A DNA stretch of 64,000 nucleotides. Origin: a virus. Taxonomy: Duplodnaviria; Heunggongvirae; Uroviricota; Caudoviricetes. Positions 1,257 through 63,888 of the stretch are shown here, piece after piece (position 1 is the stretch's first letter; every line of letters starts with the position of its first letter). The stretch lies in the IMG/VR virus record IMGVR_UViG_3300042892_003817; one strand, 5' to 3'. The position numbers were made by a program, and so were the translations under genes. Below the pieces are notes generated by a model. It was not told the DNA's origin. It saw only the letters and a program-made list of their open reading frames with translations, and did not search any database.

Positions 1257-1287
1257 TAAAGATACGAAATTTTTTACATTTCTCCAA
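1257..1287 (-). promoter_or_regulatory. Bacteroidota sigma70-type promoter TTG-N20-TATCTTTA
   Basis: TTG gagaaatgtaaaaaatttcg TATCTTTA. Confidence 0.65.
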
Positions 1288-1729
1288 CAGCTTCTACTAA
1301 AGCTTTTTTAACTGCTCCTGAGAATGCAGTCTTGTTAAATGGTAAGTTATCGTCGTTCAAATCTAAGAATGTTGATTGAACTGTTACGTTTGCTTCTCCT
1401 TGACCCCAGTATTCCTCTTTTCCTATTATAAGTCTTAATTTTACAATAGTAATTTTTTTAGTTTTAGAGAATGGACCTAAAGATGTATTTGTGGAAGGTG
1501 CTTCAACTGATAGTACTTCTACTTCTACTGGAGTTCCATCTTCACATATGTCATGCTTTTCAGATAGAATTTCTTCTGTCATTTGTTTAATTCCGAATAC
1601 AACTCTTTCTTTTTTCATTTCAGGTGCTTCAACTTGTGAAGACACTTTTGTTACTTTATAACATTCCTTAGTAGTTGTATCAGCTGATACTAAAAATACT
1701 AATGCTAATAATAAAAATAATTTTTTCAT
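1274..1729 (-). CDS. Exported protein, short CsgG-like paralogue
   Basis: Signal peptide MKKLFLLLALVFLVSA; C-terminus GQGEA..LD..DD..FN....KKAL aligns by eye with GSGEA..LD..DD.KFN....KKSL of 3245-3958. Confidence 0.6.
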   Translation of the reverse strand: MKKLFLLLALVFLVSADTTTKECYKVTKVSSQVEAPEMKKERVVFGIKQMTEEILSEKHDICEDGTPVEVEVLSVEAPSTNTSLGPFSKTKKITIVKLRLIIGKEEYWGQGEANVTVQSTFLDLNDDNLPFNKTAFSGAVKKALVEAVGEM

Positions 1730-1814
1730 AATACTAAACTGTTTTATCTTCCAAAAAGGAAATTTGATACCTTATCGTAAAACCTTTCAAATAATTGATT
1801 TAATTTTTTCATAA

Positions 1815-3245
1815 TTAAAATGTCAATTTACCACCTGTTAATATTTGGTAATTTAAAAATTCTTTACCTGCTTCGTATACTCCTGTAAAACTTACATTAA
1901 ACTTAAATGTCTTAGTTATTTTTAAATCCCATGAATTAAATGGTACTACTATTATGCCAGCATCCCACCATTTACCTTCGTAGAACTGAGTGAATGGAGA
2001 GTATACTCCTAATACAAGTACGCTAGTACTAACTCTATCGCTTAGTTTAAAACTACTATGTGCTCCACCTACAGCTGATAGATTCAATAAAGCTCTTTCT
2101 CCCATTTTACCTGCTGTAAAATTGACACCAAACATTCCTGTTAGTTTGTTACTTACTTTATATGATTCTAATACTGTCGTTGTACTAAAGAAATTTTTAT
2201 CAAAATCCATCATAATGGATTGAGCTCCTACTGTGTTTAATTTTTTAGATTTATTAATCCAGGATTTATAAAAAGTAACATTTAAGTTATTAACTCCTGA
2301 GGTATAATTGAATAATACTCCTTTGATTCTAGTTCCTCTAGTATTGGCATGAGTTATACTTCCTACAAATCTAAAGTTCTGAGTTTGATCAGTATTGGCA
2401 ATAGCTACTATATCTCCTGAGGCAATTAAACTTCCTACACTTTTAGCTGCATTATTAGATTTTTTACCACCGCCTGATGTTCCTCCACCGCCTGAACTTC
2501 CTCCGTCAGATGATCCTCCATCTACAGAGTTGGATAAAGAGTTAGCTAAATTACTTCCTCCACCGCTTGAACCTTCTACAGACGACTCAGACGATGAACC
2601 TCCTGTTGAAGCTGGTTGATTTGGACTTGTAGTTTCTCCTCCTTGTTGAGGTGTTCCTGTTGAAGATCCTGTAGGTGTTCCTCCAGAAGGGTTAGAAGTG
2701 GTTTGGCCTCCTTGACTTTGGTTACCTGTTGGGCTTGTTCCAGTAGTTCCTGTATTTGTTCCTGAATTGGTATTTGAATCGGATTTTTTTTCATCTTTTG
2801 AGTTTTGGTTAGTACTACCTCCTTCACTTTGTGAAGAGTTTGTTACGCCTCCGGCTGTAGCTGTCATAGAGCTTCCCATAGATCCTCCTATGGTCGCTAT
2901 GGATTGAGCTACGTTTGTTACTGATATTACATTTGTAACAACAGTTAATGTGTTAGCAACTGTTACATTGGTTATACTATTTACAATAGCTGTAGTTACT
3001 GATTCACAAGGTGAGTTTGAATTTTGTTGAGATACTAGAGTTATCCAGTTATCGAAGACTCCTGAGGAGAAGTCATTTGCAGAAAATGTATTATGGTTAT
3101 CAAAGTAGTTTACCATTACATTTCCCCCAGCAGGTACGAATACGCTCTTGGATTGTAGTGTACACGGATCTGTATAGGTGTAGCTGTACTGGGCTGAAGC
3201 CTGTAGGAAAGCAAAGAATATAAATAAAGAAATCCATTTTTTCAT
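1815..3245 (-). CDS. Exported protein with long S/G/T/N/Q low-complexity linker and C-terminal outer-membrane beta-barrel-like domain
   Basis: Signal peptide; about 140-aa Ser/Gly/Thr-rich tract; alternating hydrophobic strands; terminal Phe (GGKLTF). Confidence 0.65.
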   Translation of the reverse strand: MKKWISLFIFFAFLQASAQYSYTYTDPCTLQSKSVFVPAGGNVMVNYFDNHNTFSANDFSSGVFDNWITLVSQQNSNSPCESVTTAIVNSITNVTVANTLTVVTNVISVTNVAQSIATIGGSMGSSMTATAGGVTNSSQSEGGSTNQNSKDEKKSDSNTNSGTNTGTTGTSPTGNQSQGGQTTSNPSGGTPTGSSTGTPQQGGETTSPNQPASTGGSSSESSVEGSSGGGSNLANSLSNSVDGGSSDGGSSGGGGTSGGGKKSNNAAKSVGSLIASGDIVAIANTDQTQNFRFVGSITHANTRGTRIKGVLFNYTSGVNNLNVTFYKSWINKSKKLNTVGAQSIMMDFDKNFFSTTTVLESYKVSNKLTGMFGVNFTAGKMGERALLNLSAVGGAHSSFKLSDRVSTSVLVLGVYSPFTQFYEGKWWDAGIIVVPFNSWDLKITKTFKFNVSFTGVYEAGKEFLNYQILTGGKLTF

Positions 3246-3958
3246 TAGTTCGGAAATATCCCCTTTTTAATCATTTTTGATACTACTCTTGAAGAGGCAG
3301 TTTCTAATGACTTTTTGGTAGATACTCCGATTGTTGATTGATTAAATTTAATATCGTCGAGTCCATCTAATAAGCTTGCCTTCTTCACTGTAACTGCTTC
3401 ACCGGATCCTGATCCAGTAATTATTTCACCGCTCTGTGCATCCACAAATCTTACTTGTAACCCTAATATTGTTTTTTGTCTTATCTCAGCTCCAGAGGTT
3501 GAAACTTCTTCATCCTCACCTATGCTGAAATCATAGACTTCTATATAAACAAAATACTTTGCTAATATAACATTTCCTTTAACTTCTATTTTATTTTCTG
3601 ATATACCCTTAGCTGAAGCTATGTGTTGAGCAATCATTTTTTGTTTTATTTCTTCTCTGTCTTCTGTAAACTTAAATCTATTTGTGGACTCTAAATACTC
3701 TAATACTATATTTGATACTCCTAAACCAACTCTTTTATCTTTTAGTTCAGGGTACATTTCATATAATTCCTCATTGATACCAATCTTAAGGATCTGAATA
3801 GGGATGACTATGTCTCCGCTATAATCAGATACAACCTCTAATGATTGCTTCTTTTCAAAATCGGCTTGGTAGACTTCAGTTTTAACAGACCCTACTTTTT
3901 GAGCAGAGCCTATTATGCTTGCTAATAAAAATAGTATAAATATTAATTTTCTTACCAT
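3245..3958 (-). CDS. csgG: CsgG/HfaB-family outer-membrane secretion channel protein
   Basis: Signal peptide; G.G.SN.....L..TNRF...E.RE and LQVRFVD..SGEI..GSG.GE patterns typical of CsgG family; ATG at 3958 in TAATG overlap with upstream stop. Confidence 0.75.
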   Translation of the reverse strand: MVRKLIFILFLLASIIGSAQKVGSVKTEVYQADFEKKQSLEVVSDYSGDIVIPIQILKIGINEELYEMYPELKDKRVGLGVSNIVLEYLESTNRFKFTEDREEIKQKMIAQHIASAKGISENKIEVKGNVILAKYFVYIEVYDFSIGEDEEVSTSGAEIRQKTILGLQVRFVDAQSGEIITGSGSGEAVTVKKASLLDGLDDIKFNQSTIGVSTKKSLETASSRVVSKMIKKGIFPN

Positions 3959-4941
3959 TAGAACCAATTTCTTGGATTAGCTTTACTTTTTTCTATTGCT
4001 TTACCTGCATTATTAAGTGCATCTTGAGCTTCTCTTGCTTTTCTATCAAGTACGTCTTGAGCTTCTCTTGCTTGTCTTTCTAATTCTCTTTGAGCTGCTG
4101 CTGCTTCTTCAGCTAATCTTCTCTCAGTTGCTGCAGCTTGTTCTGCTAATACTCTAGCTGCTTCATCTGCTACACGTTTTGTTTCTGCTGCTGTTTCTTC
4201 TGCTACACGTTGTGCTTCAGCTGCTTCTTGAGATGCTAATAAATCTGCTGCTGCTTTAGCCGCTTCTTCTGCCGCTGCTTTAGCTGCTTCTACTTCATCC
4301 GATACATCTATAGTTACTGATGCGTCTACATCTACACCAACTAAAAGTGCTAATTCACCTTCAACTCCTAATGTGATAGCTCCATCATCGTAAGTAGCTC
4401 CACCTCCAACTTCTGCTCCTGCTTGTACCCCTACAGATACTCCTGCATTTGCTTCTGCTGATACATCACCTGATTGTGCTGTTACTCCTGCTTCTACTCC
4501 TACTGATGTTCCCACTGATGCTCCTGCGTTAGCTTCAGCTCCATGTTCTCCTATTGAAGCATTTGCTTCTACTCCTGCATGTGCTTCTGCATATGCTCCG
4601 GCATGTACTCCTGCTGTTCCGTAATCAGTTTCTACTTCTGTTGAAGCTTCTACCTCTACTTTTACTTCAGCTGTTACTCCAGCTGATGCTGAAGCGTCAT
4701 GTCCATCCCATCCTGCTTGTGCTTGTGCTTCTACTGATGCTTCTGCTGTAGCGTGTGCTTCTGAATTAATATCTACTCCTTCTACAACTTCGGTTGTATT
4801 TTCTACATTGGCATGAGCCTCGGCTGATACTCCGGCATTTGCTGATACTGATGTATCTGTTACTTCTGTTCCCGCGTGTGCTTCTGCTGATGCACCTGCT
4901 TGTTCGTTACCTACTACAACTCCGATTGTTTCGTCTGCCAT
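3958..4941 (-). CDS. Ala/Gly/Val/Glu-rich beta-repeat protein with C-terminal coiled coil
   Basis: Repeats such as AGVSAEAHA, AGAYAEAHAG, AGVSVGVQAG; then A/E/R heptads. Confidence 0.7.
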   Translation of the reverse strand: MADETIGVVVGNEQAGASAEAHAGTEVTDTSVSANAGVSAEAHANVENTTEVVEGVDINSEAHATAEASVEAQAQAGWDGHDASASAGVTAEVKVEVEASTEVETDYGTAGVHAGAYAEAHAGVEANASIGEHGAEANAGASVGTSVGVEAGVTAQSGDVSAEANAGVSVGVQAGAEVGGGATYDDGAITLGVEGELALLVGVDVDASVTIDVSDEVEAAKAAAEEAAKAAADLLASQEAAEAQRVAEETAAETKRVADEAARVLAEQAAATERRLAEEAAAAQRELERQAREAQDVLDRKAREAQDALNNAGKAIEKSKANPRNWF

Positions 4942-4943
4942 TT

Positions 4944-5213
4944 TTATTTATTTTTTTGTATTAATAAATCTTCTATATACTTTTCTCTTTGATCTGTTAA
5001 ATCTTTTACTCTTTCTAATAAAATTGCTTTATCTTCTTTAGTAGTTTCCTCAATATAAGCCTTTTGAGCCTCATAGAGTTTTTGCCAATAGGCAACTCTT
5101 TCTTCCATCATCACTCCCTGGTACCAGATTATTCCTACCATAACTATTATAGTAAAAGACTGTTCCTTTAGTTTAGACAGGAATGTATCCATGAACCCTT
5201 TTGTCTCTTCCAT
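4944..5213 (-). CDS. Small single-pass membrane protein with coiled coil
   Basis: FTIIVMVGIIWYQG hydrophobic segment then charged heptads. Confidence 0.65.
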   Translation of the reverse strand: MEETKGFMDTFLSKLKEQSFTIIVMVGIIWYQGVMMEERVAYWQKLYEAQKAYIEETTKEDKAILLERVKDLTDQREKYIEDLLIQKNK

Positions 5214-5216
5214 CTA

Positions 5217-5540
5217 TTACCAAGATTCTTTTTGAGCAGGAGCTGGTGCTGGTGCTGCTTGTTGAACTGGAGCAGGAGCGGCTTTAGCTGAATTAGAGTT
5301 GTTTGATTGTTGTTTTTGTTGGTTGGTGTTGTTGTTCTCCAAATTAACATTAATGACAGGTGCTGCTGCTGGTGCTGGTGCTACTTGTTCTGTTTTCACT
5401 TCTTCTTTATCTTCTGAGTGACCTCCGAATAAAGTTGTTGATACCCAAATACCTGCTCCACCGATTACTGTAGTTAGAGTTCCGATTAAGGTTTTTTTCA
5501 ATCCTGATAATCCACCTTCGTTGTTTGTTTCTTCTGACAT
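5217..5540 (-). CDS. Membrane-anchored low-complexity protein
   Basis: TLIGTLTTVIGGAGIWVSTTLFGG segment then N/Q/P/A-rich tail. Confidence 0.65.
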   Translation of the reverse strand: MSEETNNEGGLSGLKKTLIGTLTTVIGGAGIWVSTTLFGGHSEDKEEVKTEQVAPAPAAAPVINVNLENNNTNQQKQQSNNSNSAKAAPAPVQQAAPAPAPAQKESW

Positions 5541-5543
5541 AGC

Positions 5544-6275
5544 TTATTTTTTTATTACTTTAAATGTTTTTGCGAAGTTCTTACTTCTTATATTTAATAA
5601 ATAGTTACCACTTGGGTAAGCAGTTAGATCTCCATAAGTAGTATTCGGTCCTTTTGCAAAACGTTCTTTCTTTATACTTAGTTGATTTCCTCCCATGTCG
5701 TAAACTGCAATTTCATAATCTCCACTCACTGGTAAAGACATCTCCATTGTTATAATTCCATCTGTAGGTACTGGATATACTTTTCCGTGAATTCCATCTT
5801 CATCTAAAGGAGCTGCATACCTATTATAGTTGATATAACCATCTGTATTAGTTACAGCGATATCCCACCCTTGTACATTTCCAGCTGTCTTTCTTCCTAC
5901 GGTTATAGGAGTTGTAGTCCAGTTAGGATTAAGTACTGTAAATTTTAATATGAATAATTCTGTTGGAGCTGTTACAGTATGCTGTCCATGTGTTCTATCA
6001 TATCCTCCCCATCTTACTTTTCCACTTCCGGTATCCATTGTATAGGTTAACCAGGTTTGTGCTTTTTCAGATAAAATTATTTCTGAGAATTGTAAAATGC
6101 TTTGATCGTAATTTAAAGCAAATTCTAAACTCCCTACTGCATTTCCATTTGTTAGAATAGCTACAGGTAGATCTATGGTATTAGACGGAGACACTGTAAT
6201 CCCAGGCACTTGAAATTGTACCTGGGAATAGAGTGAATTTATTGATAACAGTGCTATGATTATATAGCGTAGCAT
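5544..6275 (-). CDS. Cohesin-domain protein with type IX secretion (Por) C-terminal sorting domain
   Basis: Signal peptide; cohesin-like V..PV...GSLEF.LNYD..IL; CTD KVYPVP...IAVYDMGG...G.YLL.I......KVIKK. Confidence 0.85.
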   Translation of the reverse strand: MLRYIIIALLSINSLYSQVQFQVPGITVSPSNTIDLPVAILTNGNAVGSLEFALNYDQSILQFSEIILSEKAQTWLTYTMDTGSGKVRWGGYDRTHGQHTVTAPTELFILKFTVLNPNWTTTPITVGRKTAGNVQGWDIAVTNTDGYINYNRYAAPLDEDGIHGKVYPVPTDGIITMEMSLPVSGDYEIAVYDMGGNQLSIKKERFAKGPNTTYGDLTAYPSGNYLLNIRSKNFAKTFKVIKK

Positions 6276-6276
6276 A

Positions 6277-7368
6277 TTAGTTGCGTCCTGTTCCGTTTGC
6301 GTCTCCTAATACTAGAAGATAGTAATTGGCTGCTGTTGTATTGTTAATGTTAGCTGATAAGAATGTTGCTACCCCTGGAATTGTTGCTGACTGATCTGTT
6401 GTAGCTGCTGCAATAGTGTTGTATTGAGCTTCTGTAAAGAATAGTAAATCAGGTGTGTTTGGGTAAACTGATAAACCTTGAGCCAATCTAGAGAATACTG
6501 TATATGAATCTGAAATTGTTATTCCATTTGCTTGGTTAGGGTTAGCAGTATAGAATTGAGTTCCAGTTGGAGCTTGTATTCCTGTAGCGATTTGAGCAAT
6601 CATATTTGCATCTGCTGCTGCTAATGCTCCTGGTGCTGTTAATCCTGGTGCTACTTTTACTCTAATTTGCCAGTAGTTTTGATCTAAGTTAGTTGTGAAT
6701 GATGCTACTCCTGTTGTAGTTGCTGTATTAACTGTCATTACATCTACCCAAGTTGTTCCGTTTGAAGATTTTTGTAATATTACTGGAACGTCTGAAGCTG
6801 GGTTGGTTGGATCATTTAAGAATGTAGCAGCATAGTTAAATACTGGTTCTGTGAACGCTCCTCCGTAATTATGTAATCCTAGTGTAGTATCAGTTCCATT
6901 TGCTAGAGTACCGTAAGCCGGGTAAGCTGTCGCTCCTGTAAACGCCATTGCTGTTACTGCACCGTTTGTATAACCTGCTTTAAATGGTAAAGCTACGTTG
7001 AACATTGCTCCGTCAGCAATATTGAAAGCAGCATCTGCTCCTGTGTAAACCCATGTAACTGTTACATTTCCTTCAGTAGCATTTACTAATGTTTGGAAAT
7101 AATTGTTTGCTTCAGTTCCAGTGTAAGTCACTGTAGGAGAAGCAAATACGTTTTTGTCGTACCAAAATCTGTACTGTACTGCTTTGATAGCTGTAGAACC
7201 AGCATTATCATAATAAATTGCAACGTTTGTAGGTGTTGCTCCAAGTGGTGCCAGGTTGTAACTAGCGTCAAATATTAAGTAAGGCTTAGTAGCATCAGGT
7301 GCGATAGTTTGTGCAAATCCTGTTAATGATACTAAAACTAAACTCAATACTAAAAGTAATTTTTTCAT
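6277..7368 (-). CDS. Exported cohesin-like + Ig-like + dockerin-like protein
   Basis: Signal peptide; AVQYRFWYDKNV cohesin-like strand; ANPNQANGITISDSY dockerin-like loop; C-terminal half paralogous to 7447-8445. Confidence 0.7.
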   Translation of the reverse strand: MKKLLLVLSLVLVSLTGFAQTIAPDATKPYLIFDASYNLAPLGATPTNVAIYYDNAGSTAIKAVQYRFWYDKNVFASPTVTYTGTEANNYFQTLVNATEGNVTVTWVYTGADAAFNIADGAMFNVALPFKAGYTNGAVTAMAFTGATAYPAYGTLANGTDTTLGLHNYGGAFTEPVFNYAATFLNDPTNPASDVPVILQKSSNGTTWVDVMTVNTATTTGVASFTTNLDQNYWQIRVKVAPGLTAPGALAAADANMIAQIATGIQAPTGTQFYTANPNQANGITISDSYTVFSRLAQGLSVYPNTPDLLFFTEAQYNTIAAATTDQSATIPGVATFLSANINNTTAANYYLLVLGDANGTGRN

Positions 7369-7429
7369 TTCTTTTGTTTTTAAGTTATTTTTATTTCACA
7401 ACCGGGTGCTTATGCACTCTCATACCTTT

Positions 7430-7437
7430 TATAAATA
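7430..7437 (-). promoter_or_regulatory. TATTTATA motif (putative phage late promoter), representative copy
   Basis: Same octamer upstream of many operon starts (see findings). Confidence 0.55.
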
Positions 7438-7446
7438 GTACTGATT

Positions 7447-8445
7447 TTAGTTGCTATACCCTAGTCTAGTAATATAGTAAGAAGAAACTCCACCCGATAC
7501 AGGTGTATTAATTGTAATTGTCTGTACCCCTGGAAATGTTGCTTTCAGGTTTGTTGTACTTGCATTAATTGTACTCCATTGAGTTGTTGTAAATATTCTA
7601 CTGTCTGGAGGGGATGCTGGAAAGGATGTAAATATTCCGTTTCTTCTAGCAAATATTGAATAAGTATCTGATATTGTTACTCTACCATCATTATTAACAT
7701 CAAATCTAAAATAGTCTCTACTCTTTAAAGCCAGTGATCCTAGAGTTACAGTGTTTGAAATCTGTGCATCACTTATTTGCAATGTAGGTAGGGTTGGAGG
7801 AGTAAAAGTTATGTAATATTCTACAGAAGGATTTGTTGGTGTTGAAAATACATATCTCCCTGTTACATCTGTTGTTGCTGTTGTTACCAAAGTCCAGGGT
7901 GTAAAAGTCACTATATAGTCAAATTCTAATACATACGGTAAAGATGTATTTGGTAAATCATTCCATTTACCGTTTCCTACAAATTGAGTATAATCTTCAT
8001 TATTTGAATTATTAGGTTCTCCTGAGTTCCAGTTTCCCCAAGTGTACGGCTCTCCTGTTACCCATCTCCATTGGCCTTCTACTACTTCATCTGTTAATCC
8101 TATCCATCCATCAGACCATAAGTTAAATATAAAGTTATTTTCAGCTGCTGTAGTTACAGTTACTAAATATCCTCCCATATTAGCACAAGCCTGTCTTGCA
8201 GCTGTCCATGTCATTGAACTTGTTGATCTATAATAGGAATGTCCGTTATAATTTTGCTGGTTTGTAAATCCTGTTAAAGTAGGTGTTGTTCTACTATATA
8301 ACTGCACCTGTACTCCTTGTATACCTGTAGCGTTTGATCCATAGATATAACCAGAGTGCGTAAAGGTTTGACCGTACGTAGATAAAATACCCCCTAGTAT
8401 TAGTAGAGGGTATAACATTTTTACTATTTTGGCTAATATATTCAT
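7447..8445 (-). CDS. Exported C-type lectin domain protein with dockerin-like domain
   Basis: TW..A...C...GGYLV, WIGL, W.W..G, EPN and WND motifs of CTLD; DVNNDGRVTISD dockerin-type Ca2+ loop. Confidence 0.88.
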   Translation of the reverse strand: MNILAKIVKMLYPLLILGGILSTYGQTFTHSGYIYGSNATGIQGVQVQLYSRTTPTLTGFTNQQNYNGHSYYRSTSSMTWTAARQACANMGGYLVTVTTAAENNFIFNLWSDGWIGLTDEVVEGQWRWVTGEPYTWGNWNSGEPNNSNNEDYTQFVGNGKWNDLPNTSLPYVLEFDYIVTFTPWTLVTTATTDVTGRYVFSTPTNPSVEYYITFTPPTLPTLQISDAQISNTVTLGSLALKSRDYFRFDVNNDGRVTISDTYSIFARRNGIFTSFPASPPDSRIFTTTQWSTINASTTNLKATFPGVQTITINTPVSGGVSSYYITRLGYSN

Positions 8446-8458
8446 TTCATATAAATAG

Positions 8459-28493: not shown

Positions 28494-28525
28494 AAATTTT
28501 ATTTGTTAGTAACTTTTTCTATATA

Positions 28526-28556
28526 TAAATATATGAAAAAAACTTTTTTAAAACAA
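28526..28556 (-). promoter_or_regulatory. Bacteroidota sigma70-type promoter TTG-N20-TATATTTA overlapping TATTTATA
   Basis: Exact 20-nt spacing; upstream of chaperone gene. Confidence 0.55.
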
Positions 28557-31260: not shown

Positions 31261-31354
31261 GTTTATTTAATTTGTTTTAATTTATTATAAATATCTTGGG
31301 ATTTCGATAACCATCTTATATGATTAGAGGTTCTATATTCTCTAATAAATAGGA

Positions 31355-46786: not shown

Positions 46787-46864
46787 ATTAAGTATTATTA
46801 CGATTGGTTACCGGATTGCCGGCCCACTTCCTTCTTCAGGTCTATAATATATAATATAAATATC

Positions 46865-62250: not shown

Positions 62251-62279
62251 TTTAAAATGTTTTATTTATAAATAGTAAC

Positions 62280-63854: not shown

Positions 63855-63888
63855 ATTATATACTTATATATTATAAATATGTGTATAT

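Follow-up and report, generated by a model that had tools for sequence, protein, structure and literature searches.

A phage-borne cassette of predicted envelope proteins, with a cohesin-dockerin lectin set and a CsgG-fold pair, in Flavobacterium-type myophages

Partial curli operons with CsgG and CsgF have been described in T4-like pelagimyophages of the HTVC008M group (PMC7029224) and in the Methylophilales phage Melnitz (PMC9004378), and both 'sibling capture' and lysis timing have been proposed as roles for these phage genes (PMC7029224, PMC9004378). Phage genes with type A sorting domains for secretion by the type IX system (T9SS) are known from Cryophage, where they vary among variants and include the gene of a PA14-domain protein (PMC7468147). 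On the cellular side, overexpression of the Flavobacterium lectin RemA is reported to lead to autoaggregation by binding of extracellular polysaccharide on neighbouring cells (PMC8481357). Here we analyse nine genes, g1 to g9, at positions 1274-8445 of a 64-kb stretch (the window) of the viral record IMGVR_UViG_3300042892_003817 from IMG/VR, which is 126 kb long and about 78% complete. A preliminary description of this DNA held that no such module was known from a lytic T4-like phage; given the curli operons (PMC7029224, PMC9004378) and the phage T9SS cargo (PMC7468147) already published, this was overstated. The reading we favour, with a probability of about 0.5, is that a late-expressed cassette places phage proteins in the envelope of an infected Flavobacterium-type cell, and that its main output is the surface display of sugar-binding proteins.

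The cassette sits between ribonucleotide reductase (RNR) and thioredoxin genes, and its first support comes from a cultured relative. Over its first 12 kb the window shares 84.6% nucleotide identity with Flavobacterium phage vB_FspM_immuto, an Immutovirus of Baltic Sea origin with a 160-kb genome and Flavobacterium sp. LMO8 as host. In this complete genome the equivalents of the cassette are gp013-gp019, flanked by RNR/endonuclease genes and thioredoxin, and annotated as 'lectin C-type domain', 'cohesin domain' and otherwise hypothetical proteins. A scan of viral contigs with g7 gave 137 relatives, from which 80 loci were kept; g2, g3, g4, g7, g8 and g9 are all present in 66 of these, in constant order, and the same block stands in immuto. 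The cassette is thus a genuinely phage-borne set of envelope-targeted proteins.

Conservation across the 80 loci is uneven. Median identity is highest for g7 (78%, range 66-99%), followed by g4 (64%), g9 (48%), g8 (42%), g2 (36%) and g3 (30%), and two genes are rarely present at all, g5 occurring in 7/80 loci and g6 in 6/80. The nine genes that the preliminary description grouped into one module are real, but the unit that is conserved is smaller: it consists of g2/g3, g4, g7, g8 and g9, together with a swappable glycan binder. A database search with g7 returned more than 4000 homologues, the majority over 90% identical, which indicates that the phage group is abundant; a tblastn search of g7 against 50,697 deposited phage records gave immuto as the sole match.

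Two observations concern the surroundings of the cassette in related DNA. Immuto has an extra gene for a NUC1-type nuclease, gp012 (L002:9148-9726), with a Holliday-junction-resolvase-like endonuclease on one side and the lectin gene on the other, and this gene is missing from the window at 8446-8458. Close homologues also occur on contigs labelled as metagenome-assembled genomes (MAGs) of Flavobacterium, Bacteroidetes and Sediminibacterium. We considered these as a host version and rejected them: the cassette they carry is of the phage type, and the one flank checked contains phage genes. That contig (L086; CAIWBA010000291.1, 254 kb, labelled uncultured Bacteroidetes MAG) has a full phage-type cassette with genes for phosphoribosyl pyrophosphate synthase, a GH19/peptidoglycan-binding endolysin, a DUF481 barrel protein, a metallophosphatase and the anti-Thoeris protein Tad6 as neighbours, and probably represents a large phage that was assigned to a bacterial bin.

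All nine open reading frames lie on the minus strand of the window, as do all features given below. They are tightly packed, the gaps from g1 through g9 being 78, 1, 3, 3, 2, -1, -1 and 85 nucleotides (nt), and the two overlaps, g6/g7 and g7/g8, take the form TAATG; for g7 we use the ATG at 3958, which matches the 237-residue homologues in databases, rather than the TTG at 3967. Packing and overlaps agree with what had been described, though co-orientation in itself says little, since almost the entire window codes on the minus strand. Six products (g1, g2, g3, g7, g8 and g9) begin with a Sec-signal-like sequence of basic, then hydrophobic, then small residues, and g4 and g5 each have a single hydrophobic segment near the N-terminus, in line with the six signal peptides and two membrane anchors counted earlier; g6 has neither. 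These calls are a heuristic reading of the sequence. In five of the six signal-peptide products Gln directly follows the likely cleavage site, which is the Q-rule of Bacteroidetes (PMC5837995); phage proteins that obey this rule have been noted before, in phages of P. gingivalis (PMC10367356).

The part of the cassette that bears most directly on display is formed by g1, g2 and g3. The g3 protein (5544..6275, 243 residues) consists of a signal peptide, a cohesin domain at residues 19-127 (window 5895-6221) and, at residues 166-243 (window 5547-5780), a C-terminal T9SS sorting domain of type A. Both domains score above the Pfam cut-offs - Cohesin (PF00963) with E 6e-8 and 33.4 bits against 24.1, Por_Secre_tail (PF18962) with E 1.4e-9 and 38.6 bits against 27 - and the sorting domain also matches TIGR04183 (E 4.7e-10, 39.3 bits against a cut-off of 23). 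A profile search of the PDB with g3 agrees, matching the cohesins 6kg8/6kgc and the T9SS sorting domains 5jvk/8glk. The earlier call of a cohesin-T9SS protein therefore holds. With this pair of domains g3 is predicted to be cargo of the host's type IX secretion system, and its sorting domain is the sole one of the T9SS found in the 126-kb record.

The g1 protein (7447..8445, 332 residues) starts with a signal peptide and a beta-sandwich, in which residues 77-168 (window 7942-8217) are a C-type lectin domain; a dockerin-like segment at about residues 226-270 (window 7636-7770) and a C-terminal region in common with g2 come next. That it carries a C-type lectin domain follows from a match to Lectin_C (PF00059) at E 2.6e-17, with 63.9 bits against a Pfam cut-off of 22.6, and from its EPN and WND motifs; sugar binding is accordingly a prediction. 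For the dockerin part, the pattern sought was two copies of a calcium loop D-x-N-x-D-G-x(5)-D, each with a helix after it; g1 has the canonical loop DVNNDGRVTISD in its second segment, whereas the first is without it. Of the earlier lectin-dockerin call, then, the lectin is secure, and the dockerin-like segment, which falls below the Pfam cut-off, has one canonical calcium loop and is supported by a model of its complex with g3. Relatives fill the g1 slot with Lectin_C, Lectin_C plus ConA-like/LamG, PA14 or Ig_7 domains, and place it upstream of g2 in 19 loci and after g9 in 33; since both content and position vary in this way, the slot appears to hold an exchangeable glycan-binding head.

Between them lies g2 (6277..7368, 363 residues). 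Its signal peptide precedes an N-terminal domain that is probably cohesin-like; a CarboxypepD_reg/transthyretin-like beta-sandwich comes next, then a degenerate dockerin-like segment and the C-terminal region that g2 shares with g1. The protein itself gives no Pfam match, but 12 of 39 homologues match Dockerin_1 (best E 7.8e-5) and three match CarboxypepD_reg, while its language-model neighbours have Cohesin and Dockerin domains. Against the g3 cohesin its N-terminal domain aligns weakly (hhalign, E 0.013), and the best PDB match of that domain is a cohesin at E 0.35. As judged from these profiles, g2 is strongly supported as a second dockerin-type protein; the cohesin half of the cohesin-dockerin label it had been given has a weak signal, and the N-terminal domain is best called probably cohesin-like. 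In distant relatives (loci L027-L082, e.g. L046:7696-9597 and L033:1665-3569) g2 and g3 form a single protein of about 630 residues, which runs from a signal peptide through a cohesin-like domain, a beta-sandwich, a dockerin, a linker and a cohesin to the sorting domain. In the immuto-like clade this fusion is split exactly at the linker, and the g3 half has gained a signal peptide of its own. Their fusion in distant relatives indicates that g2 and g3 are functionally linked.

A coupling between g1 and g3 is suggested by structure prediction. We modelled residues 18-160 of g3, which include the cohesin, with the C-terminal region of g1 (residues 210-332) and calcium. The interface score ipSAE was 0.83 in each of three runs, against 0.18 for the best control; the runs have at least 95% of contacts in common, and the partner has a predicted local distance difference test score (pLDDT) of at least 83. 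In the calibration of the ipSAE mark, 51 of 78 solved complexes reached it and 2 of 108 mismatched pairs did. In the model, the g3 cohesin is touched by g1 residues 228-237 and 251-276, on the two dockerin helices. The model supports binding of the g1 dockerin-like segment to the g3 cohesin, though it falls short of proof.

The most conserved gene of the cassette, g7 (3245..3958, 237 residues), codes for a signal peptide of the signal peptidase I type, with no lipobox Cys, and a CsgG-fold domain. Its AlphaFold2 model has a pLDDT of 83.4; a Foldseek search with this model returns CsgG (4uv2/4uv3/6l7c) as top matches at E of about 2e-8, and VIA-align superposes it on CsgG with Z 13-13.9 and a root-mean-square deviation (rmsd) of 2.3-3.2 over 168-194 residues, the next fold reaching Z 10.6. 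Sequence alone is less direct. Against the Pfam CsgG family (PF03783), g7 gives nothing at E <=1, nor does a six-frame search of the whole record at E <=10. Among 240 relatives found in a representative search with g7, 42 were aligned, of which 21 match PF03783 (best E 1.9e-17), and the joint profile finds E. coli CsgG at E 9.5e-5; a profile of phage sequences only found no match in the PDB, so that distant homologues are required for the link. Since it runs through such intermediates, membership of g7 in the CsgG/HfaB family is by sequence transitive only.

Several details of g7 depart from the curli protein. It is without any Cys, its signal peptide ending in GSA before a Q, while a G-C lipobox is present in distant homologues and in one phage homologue (L076). 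By sequence and one monomer model, the hairpin equivalent to the first transmembrane hairpin of CsgG (TM1) is charged on both faces and has conserved Glu residues; the region of the second (TM2), which links the last core strand with the C-terminal helix, is unaligned, and E. coli CsgG has about 11 residues more there. Of the 'CsgG-family pore' in the preliminary description, the fold stands, at Z of about 14, and the pore is not supported: with no lipobox Cys, an acidic TM1-equivalent hairpin and a shorter TM2 region, g7 is on its model a CsgG-fold protein and a distant member of the family rather than a demonstrated pore.

Further along the operon, g9 (1274..1729, 151 residues) carries, besides a signal peptide, two Cys residues, one invariant and the other well conserved, and is a truncated paralogue of g7, as had been thought: its profile aligns to that of g7 with a probability of 97.3% and E 1.8e-11 (hhalign). 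Pairs of g7-like and g9-like genes are also found in cellular loci, of Ignavibacteriales, Rhodothermales, KSB1, Chitinivibrionales and an unclassified Bacteroidota MAG (L091, L092, L093, L094, L096), from which it would follow that the pair predates the phage cassette. In these cellular pairs the g7-type member is a lipoprotein and adjoins the second, g9-like CsgG-fold gene. At one of them (L093) a gene for a caspase-domain protein comes after the pair, and in a locus from Cloacimonadota (L095) a lone g7-like gene lies downstream of a gene for an 840-residue T9SS cargo protein.

The third outer-envelope candidate is g8 (1815..3245, 476 residues), in which a signal peptide is followed by a small N-terminal domain that contains Cys (residues 20-72), a long helix (residues 79-121, window 2883-3011), a hypervariable and disordered linker rich in Ser, Gly, Thr, Asn and Gln (residues 122-268, window 2442-2882) and a C-terminal beta-barrel ending in Phe (residues 272-475, window 1821-2432). 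Helix and barrel are those of the AlphaFold2 model, in which the barrel has 12 strands; pLDDT is about 80 for the barrel, below 50 for the linker and about 65-73 for the helix. No sequence match to Pfam, NCBIfam or the PDB was found for g8 and 26 homologues, and the Phage_OMP model of Pfam gave no match on the genome of this phage. In structure, the closest match by VIA-align is the translocator of the autotransporter NalP (Z 25.8, rmsd 2.6, 229 residues over the model range 78-476, pore helix included), followed by EspP, EstA, Hbp and AIDA-I (Z 20-23), the porins KdgM/NanC (about 19) and the amyloid exporter FapF (18.8), and Foldseek and AFDB matches are likewise outer-membrane barrels and autotransporters. 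The outer-membrane beta-barrel of the preliminary description thus reappears as a putative 12-stranded one, closest in the model to autotransporter translocators. Among relatives the linker varies several-fold in length (whole proteins have 377 to 737 residues), and the helix before it has a repeated V-x-x-N-T/V-like spacing that recalls the Asn-layer coiled coils of trimeric adhesins.

The remaining core gene, g4 (5217..5540, 107 residues), has a short acidic N-terminus, one membrane segment, a tail rich in Pro, Ala, Asn and Gln, and an invariant acidic C-terminus ending in Trp. It is present in 76 of the 80 loci at 41-86% identity, and searches of the products of the Pfam, PHROG and NCBIfam type gave no family match for it. 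All of its homologues end in an acidic stretch and a terminal, invariant Trp (e.g. EESW, EDPW). Possibly this C-terminal motif is a docking site for a partner in the periplasm or outer membrane.

When these genes are expressed is suggested by a short motif, TATTTATA, that the preliminary description had recognised as the phage's own. It stands at 8450..8457, 4 nt upstream of the ATG of g1, and at 7430..7437, 61 nt upstream of g2, where it is likely the head of a g2-to-g9 operon. The window has 23 copies against 11.25 expected, a number that none of 100 shuffles reached, and they are nearly always on the coding strand. Terminase, portal, tail-fibre, sheath and baseplate-hub genes have the motif, often as CTATTTATA, 13-30 nt upstream (window 16522-63879; examples from the motif scan are 63872-63879, 62267-62274, 46855-46862, 31286-31293 and 28524-28531). 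Of 73 related loci, 30 have TATTTATA no more than 120 nt upstream of g2 or the g2-g3 fusion, and none has it upstream of g7, g8 or g9. The late promoter of T4 is TATAAATA, to which TATTTATA can be likened, and TATTTATA looks like the late promoter of the phage group. As it heads the cassette as well as structural genes, the cassette is probably one late operon amid replication genes. A generic scan for sigma-70 promoters and terminators gave sites no commoner than in shuffled sequence.

From these elements the following course can be proposed. Late transcription would be followed by Sec export of six products into the envelope of the infected cell. Of these, g3 would be exported further through the host's T9SS to a place on or near the cell surface, where it would hold g1 (and g2). 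The displayed lectins could then bind glycans on neighbouring host cells or on particles, so that the infected cell, in a RemA-like manner, would stick to fresh hosts shortly before lysis. Finally, g4, g7, g8 and g9 may form an envelope complex made up of an inner-membrane tether, the CsgG-fold pair and the autotransporter-like barrel with its small surface passenger; this complex might export the dockerin proteins that lack a sorting domain or might itself be a second displayed structure, and it is the least certain step. In its most complete form the scheme would be a self-contained, virus-built display, in which g7/g9 and g8, tethered by g4, route Sec-exported dockerin lectins outward to snap onto a T9SS-anchored cohesin, and sibling hosts are captured before lysis. 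So specific a version is a long shot.

A number of points weigh against surface display as the main output. The g1 dockerin scores 13.7 bits against Dockerin_1 (PF00404), under the Pfam cut-off of 22.9, the calcium loop of the g2 dockerin is degenerate (N-P-N-Q-A-N), and the score of the g1-g3 complex may be a memory of solved cohesin-dockerin pairs. Neither g1 nor g2 has a T9SS sorting domain to take it across the outer membrane. Curli CsgG has a lipid anchor and amphipathic hairpins that g7 lacks, and the placement of the helix inside the g8 barrel comes from one model of moderate confidence. As for timing, the TATTTATA copy before g1 is nearer to its ATG than at other genes; contigs from the metatranscriptome libraries of four studies cover core genes, but these are compatible with carried-over DNA and silent on transcription, strand and level, and we count them as 'not contradicted'. 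Lastly, the lectin of g1 would suit aggregation, receptor masking and particle attachment alike.

Receptor masking uses the same machinery for another purpose. Here the lectins would bind glycans of their own cell in cis and cover the phage receptor, with protection from superinfection and no loss of progeny on debris as the benefit. The glycan-binding module turns over fast among relatives, as would be expected if, like receptor-binding proteins, it tracked hypervariable surface glycans of the host; a late-type promoter is compatible with a role near release; and avoidance of co-infection has been proposed for the variable envelope genes of pelagimyophages (PMC7029224) and of Cryophage (PMC7468147). 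However, known exclusion proteins are usually early and small, recognition of host glycans by the lectin is hypothetical, and an elaborate scaffold with outer-membrane proteins would be superfluous for simple masking. On balance we regard masking in cis as unlikely, if still a serious contender.

It is also conceivable that two unrelated functions have come together in one operon, g1-g3 being secreted glycan binders and g4/g7/g8/g9 a trans-envelope device to permeabilise or break up the outer membrane, which would serve lysis timing or a spanin-like release. The late-type promoter would suit such a device, as would the predicted locations of its parts, with g4 anchored in the inner membrane and g7-g9 in the outer membrane and periplasm, and g7 is conserved far above g2/g3. 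A lysis role has moreover been speculated upon for phage CsgG/CsgF in Melnitz (PMC9004378), and in the related phage contig L086 the GH19 endolysin gene is about 750 bp from the cassette. In immuto, by contrast, the annotated endolysin-holin pair is about 28 kb away, and both parts of the cassette are collinear in all 66 loci with a whole core. A barrel that the host must assemble is an odd choice for a last-minute lysis device, and there is no spanin-like lipoprotein, g7 being without a lipobox. This division of labour, too, strikes us as doubtful.

That the products are parts or decorations of the virion, such as adhesins on capsid or tail, is highly improbable. The promoter motif is held in common with structural genes, and lectin, Ig-like and PA14 modules are frequent in receptor-binding and decoration proteins of phages; yet cleavable Sec signals are kept in all relatives, next to a T9SS sorting domain and an outer-membrane barrel, features that remove proteins from the cytoplasm, where virions are assembled, and no product has a structural match in PHROG. 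Weakest is the notion of an assembly chimera or of host DNA misjoined to a phage contig, which had been named beforehand as a way in which the cassette could prove spurious and to which a run of six exported proteins with cell-type domains, odd for a lytic phage, and a local rise in G+C over g6 might have lent some colour, but which is excluded by the identical RNR-thioredoxin placement in cultured immuto at 84.6% nucleotide identity, by collinearity in 66 independent viral contigs and by the phage genes that neighbour close homologues on 'MAG' contigs.

The two accessory genes lie between g4 and g7. The g5 protein (4944..5213, 89 residues) consists of one membrane segment and then a charged helical region, and its gene adjoins g6 wherever both are present. 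The g6 protein (3958..4941, 327 residues), without a signal peptide, has repeats rich in Ala, Glu, Val and Gly and then a helical tail rich in Ala, Glu and Arg with 11-residue repeats; in the DNA these are 33-nt tandem repeats, and g6 has a G+C of 0.43-0.44 against about 0.33 in the flanks. It has no family match. The earlier label of a beta-repeat protein is not supported; the sequence has an acidic repeat region, a repeat tail and a Trp-Phe end. The pair (window 3958-5213) is found outside the core, downstream of a g1-like gene, in two other loci (L031, 15336-16513; L038, 15624-16921), looks mobile and is raised in G+C.

Lytic phages are mostly thought to alter the metabolism of their hosts and not the outer surface. 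Here a six-gene envelope cassette is retained by Flavobacteriia myophages of fresh and brackish water that form a large, very abundant clade, and the cassette would use the host's T9SS and a cellulosome-style plug and socket to present exchangeable sugar binders. Were display borne out, it would provide 'sibling capture' or receptor masking, hitherto a matter of speculation for phage curli genes, with a mechanism that can be tested, and Bacteroidota with a natural, compact cohesin-dockerin display system; it would also direct attention to the paired CsgG-fold proteins of the Fibrobacteres-Chlorobi-Bacteroidetes (FCB) group, a cellular family that is uncharacterised. Since the genes are also found in a cultured system, that of immuto with its host Flavobacterium sp. 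LMO8, experiments are feasible.

We found no published description of a phage with cohesin-dockerin coupling, an exchangeable lectin head, an autotransporter-like barrel joined with so divergent a CsgG-fold pair, or a late-promoter operon of this kind; the comparison suggests that the parts have phage precedents and that the combination is one for which no precedent was found. The curli operons of pelagimyophages and Melnitz come closest in setting: these, too, are lytic aquatic or marine myophages in which a CsgG-type gene stands in a small operon with envelope genes of unassigned role, and curli fibre genes are lacking. They differ in having recognisable CsgG and CsgF near to proteobacterial ones, whereas g7 is missed by the Pfam CsgG family and CsgF is absent - none of the nine products matches any curli family (csgA/B, csgE/F) at E <=1. 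Unlike in pelagimyophages, g7 is accompanied by its own truncated paralogue, by an autotransporter-like barrel and by a T9SS/cohesin-dockerin set. To E. coli CsgG itself (4uv3, 4uv2, 6l7c) the likeness is one of overall fold (Z 13-13.9), with a conserved YP motif of g7 at the position of the constriction loop, and it stops at the lipobox Cys, the acidic TM1 hairpin, a TM2 about 11 residues shorter and the missing CsgA, B, E and F. With type Va autotransporters (NalP 1uyn, EspP, EstA, Hbp, AIDA-I), g8 would share the C-terminal 12-stranded barrel, a helix aligned to the pore helix and an extra N-terminal domain. In g8, however, about 150 disordered residues lie between helix and barrel and the 'passenger' has just about 55 residues, while no Pfam autotransporter family is matched and KdgM/NanC and FapF fit the barrel too (Z 18.8-19.5).

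For the adhesin part, cellulosomal and non-cellulosomal cohesin-dockerin pairs offer the parallels of an above-cut-off cohesin, of a dockerin loop that resembles an EF hand and of an interface that the model places on the dockerin helices; the anchor here, though, is a T9SS sorting domain and not an S-layer or sortase module, the cargo consists of lectins and not enzymes, and a lytic phage encodes the whole. The T9SS cargo of Cryophage comprises single enzymes or PA14 proteins, each with its own sorting domain, whereas in the present cassette one cohesin cargo is proposed to hold dockerin-tagged partners, alongside outer-membrane proteins. RemA of F. johnsoniae is one large protein with its own sorting domain that is moved by the gliding motor, and bears no sequence relation to the phage proteins; as a T9SS-displayed surface lectin of Flavobacterium (PMC8481357), it is nonetheless the working model for what the cassette may do.

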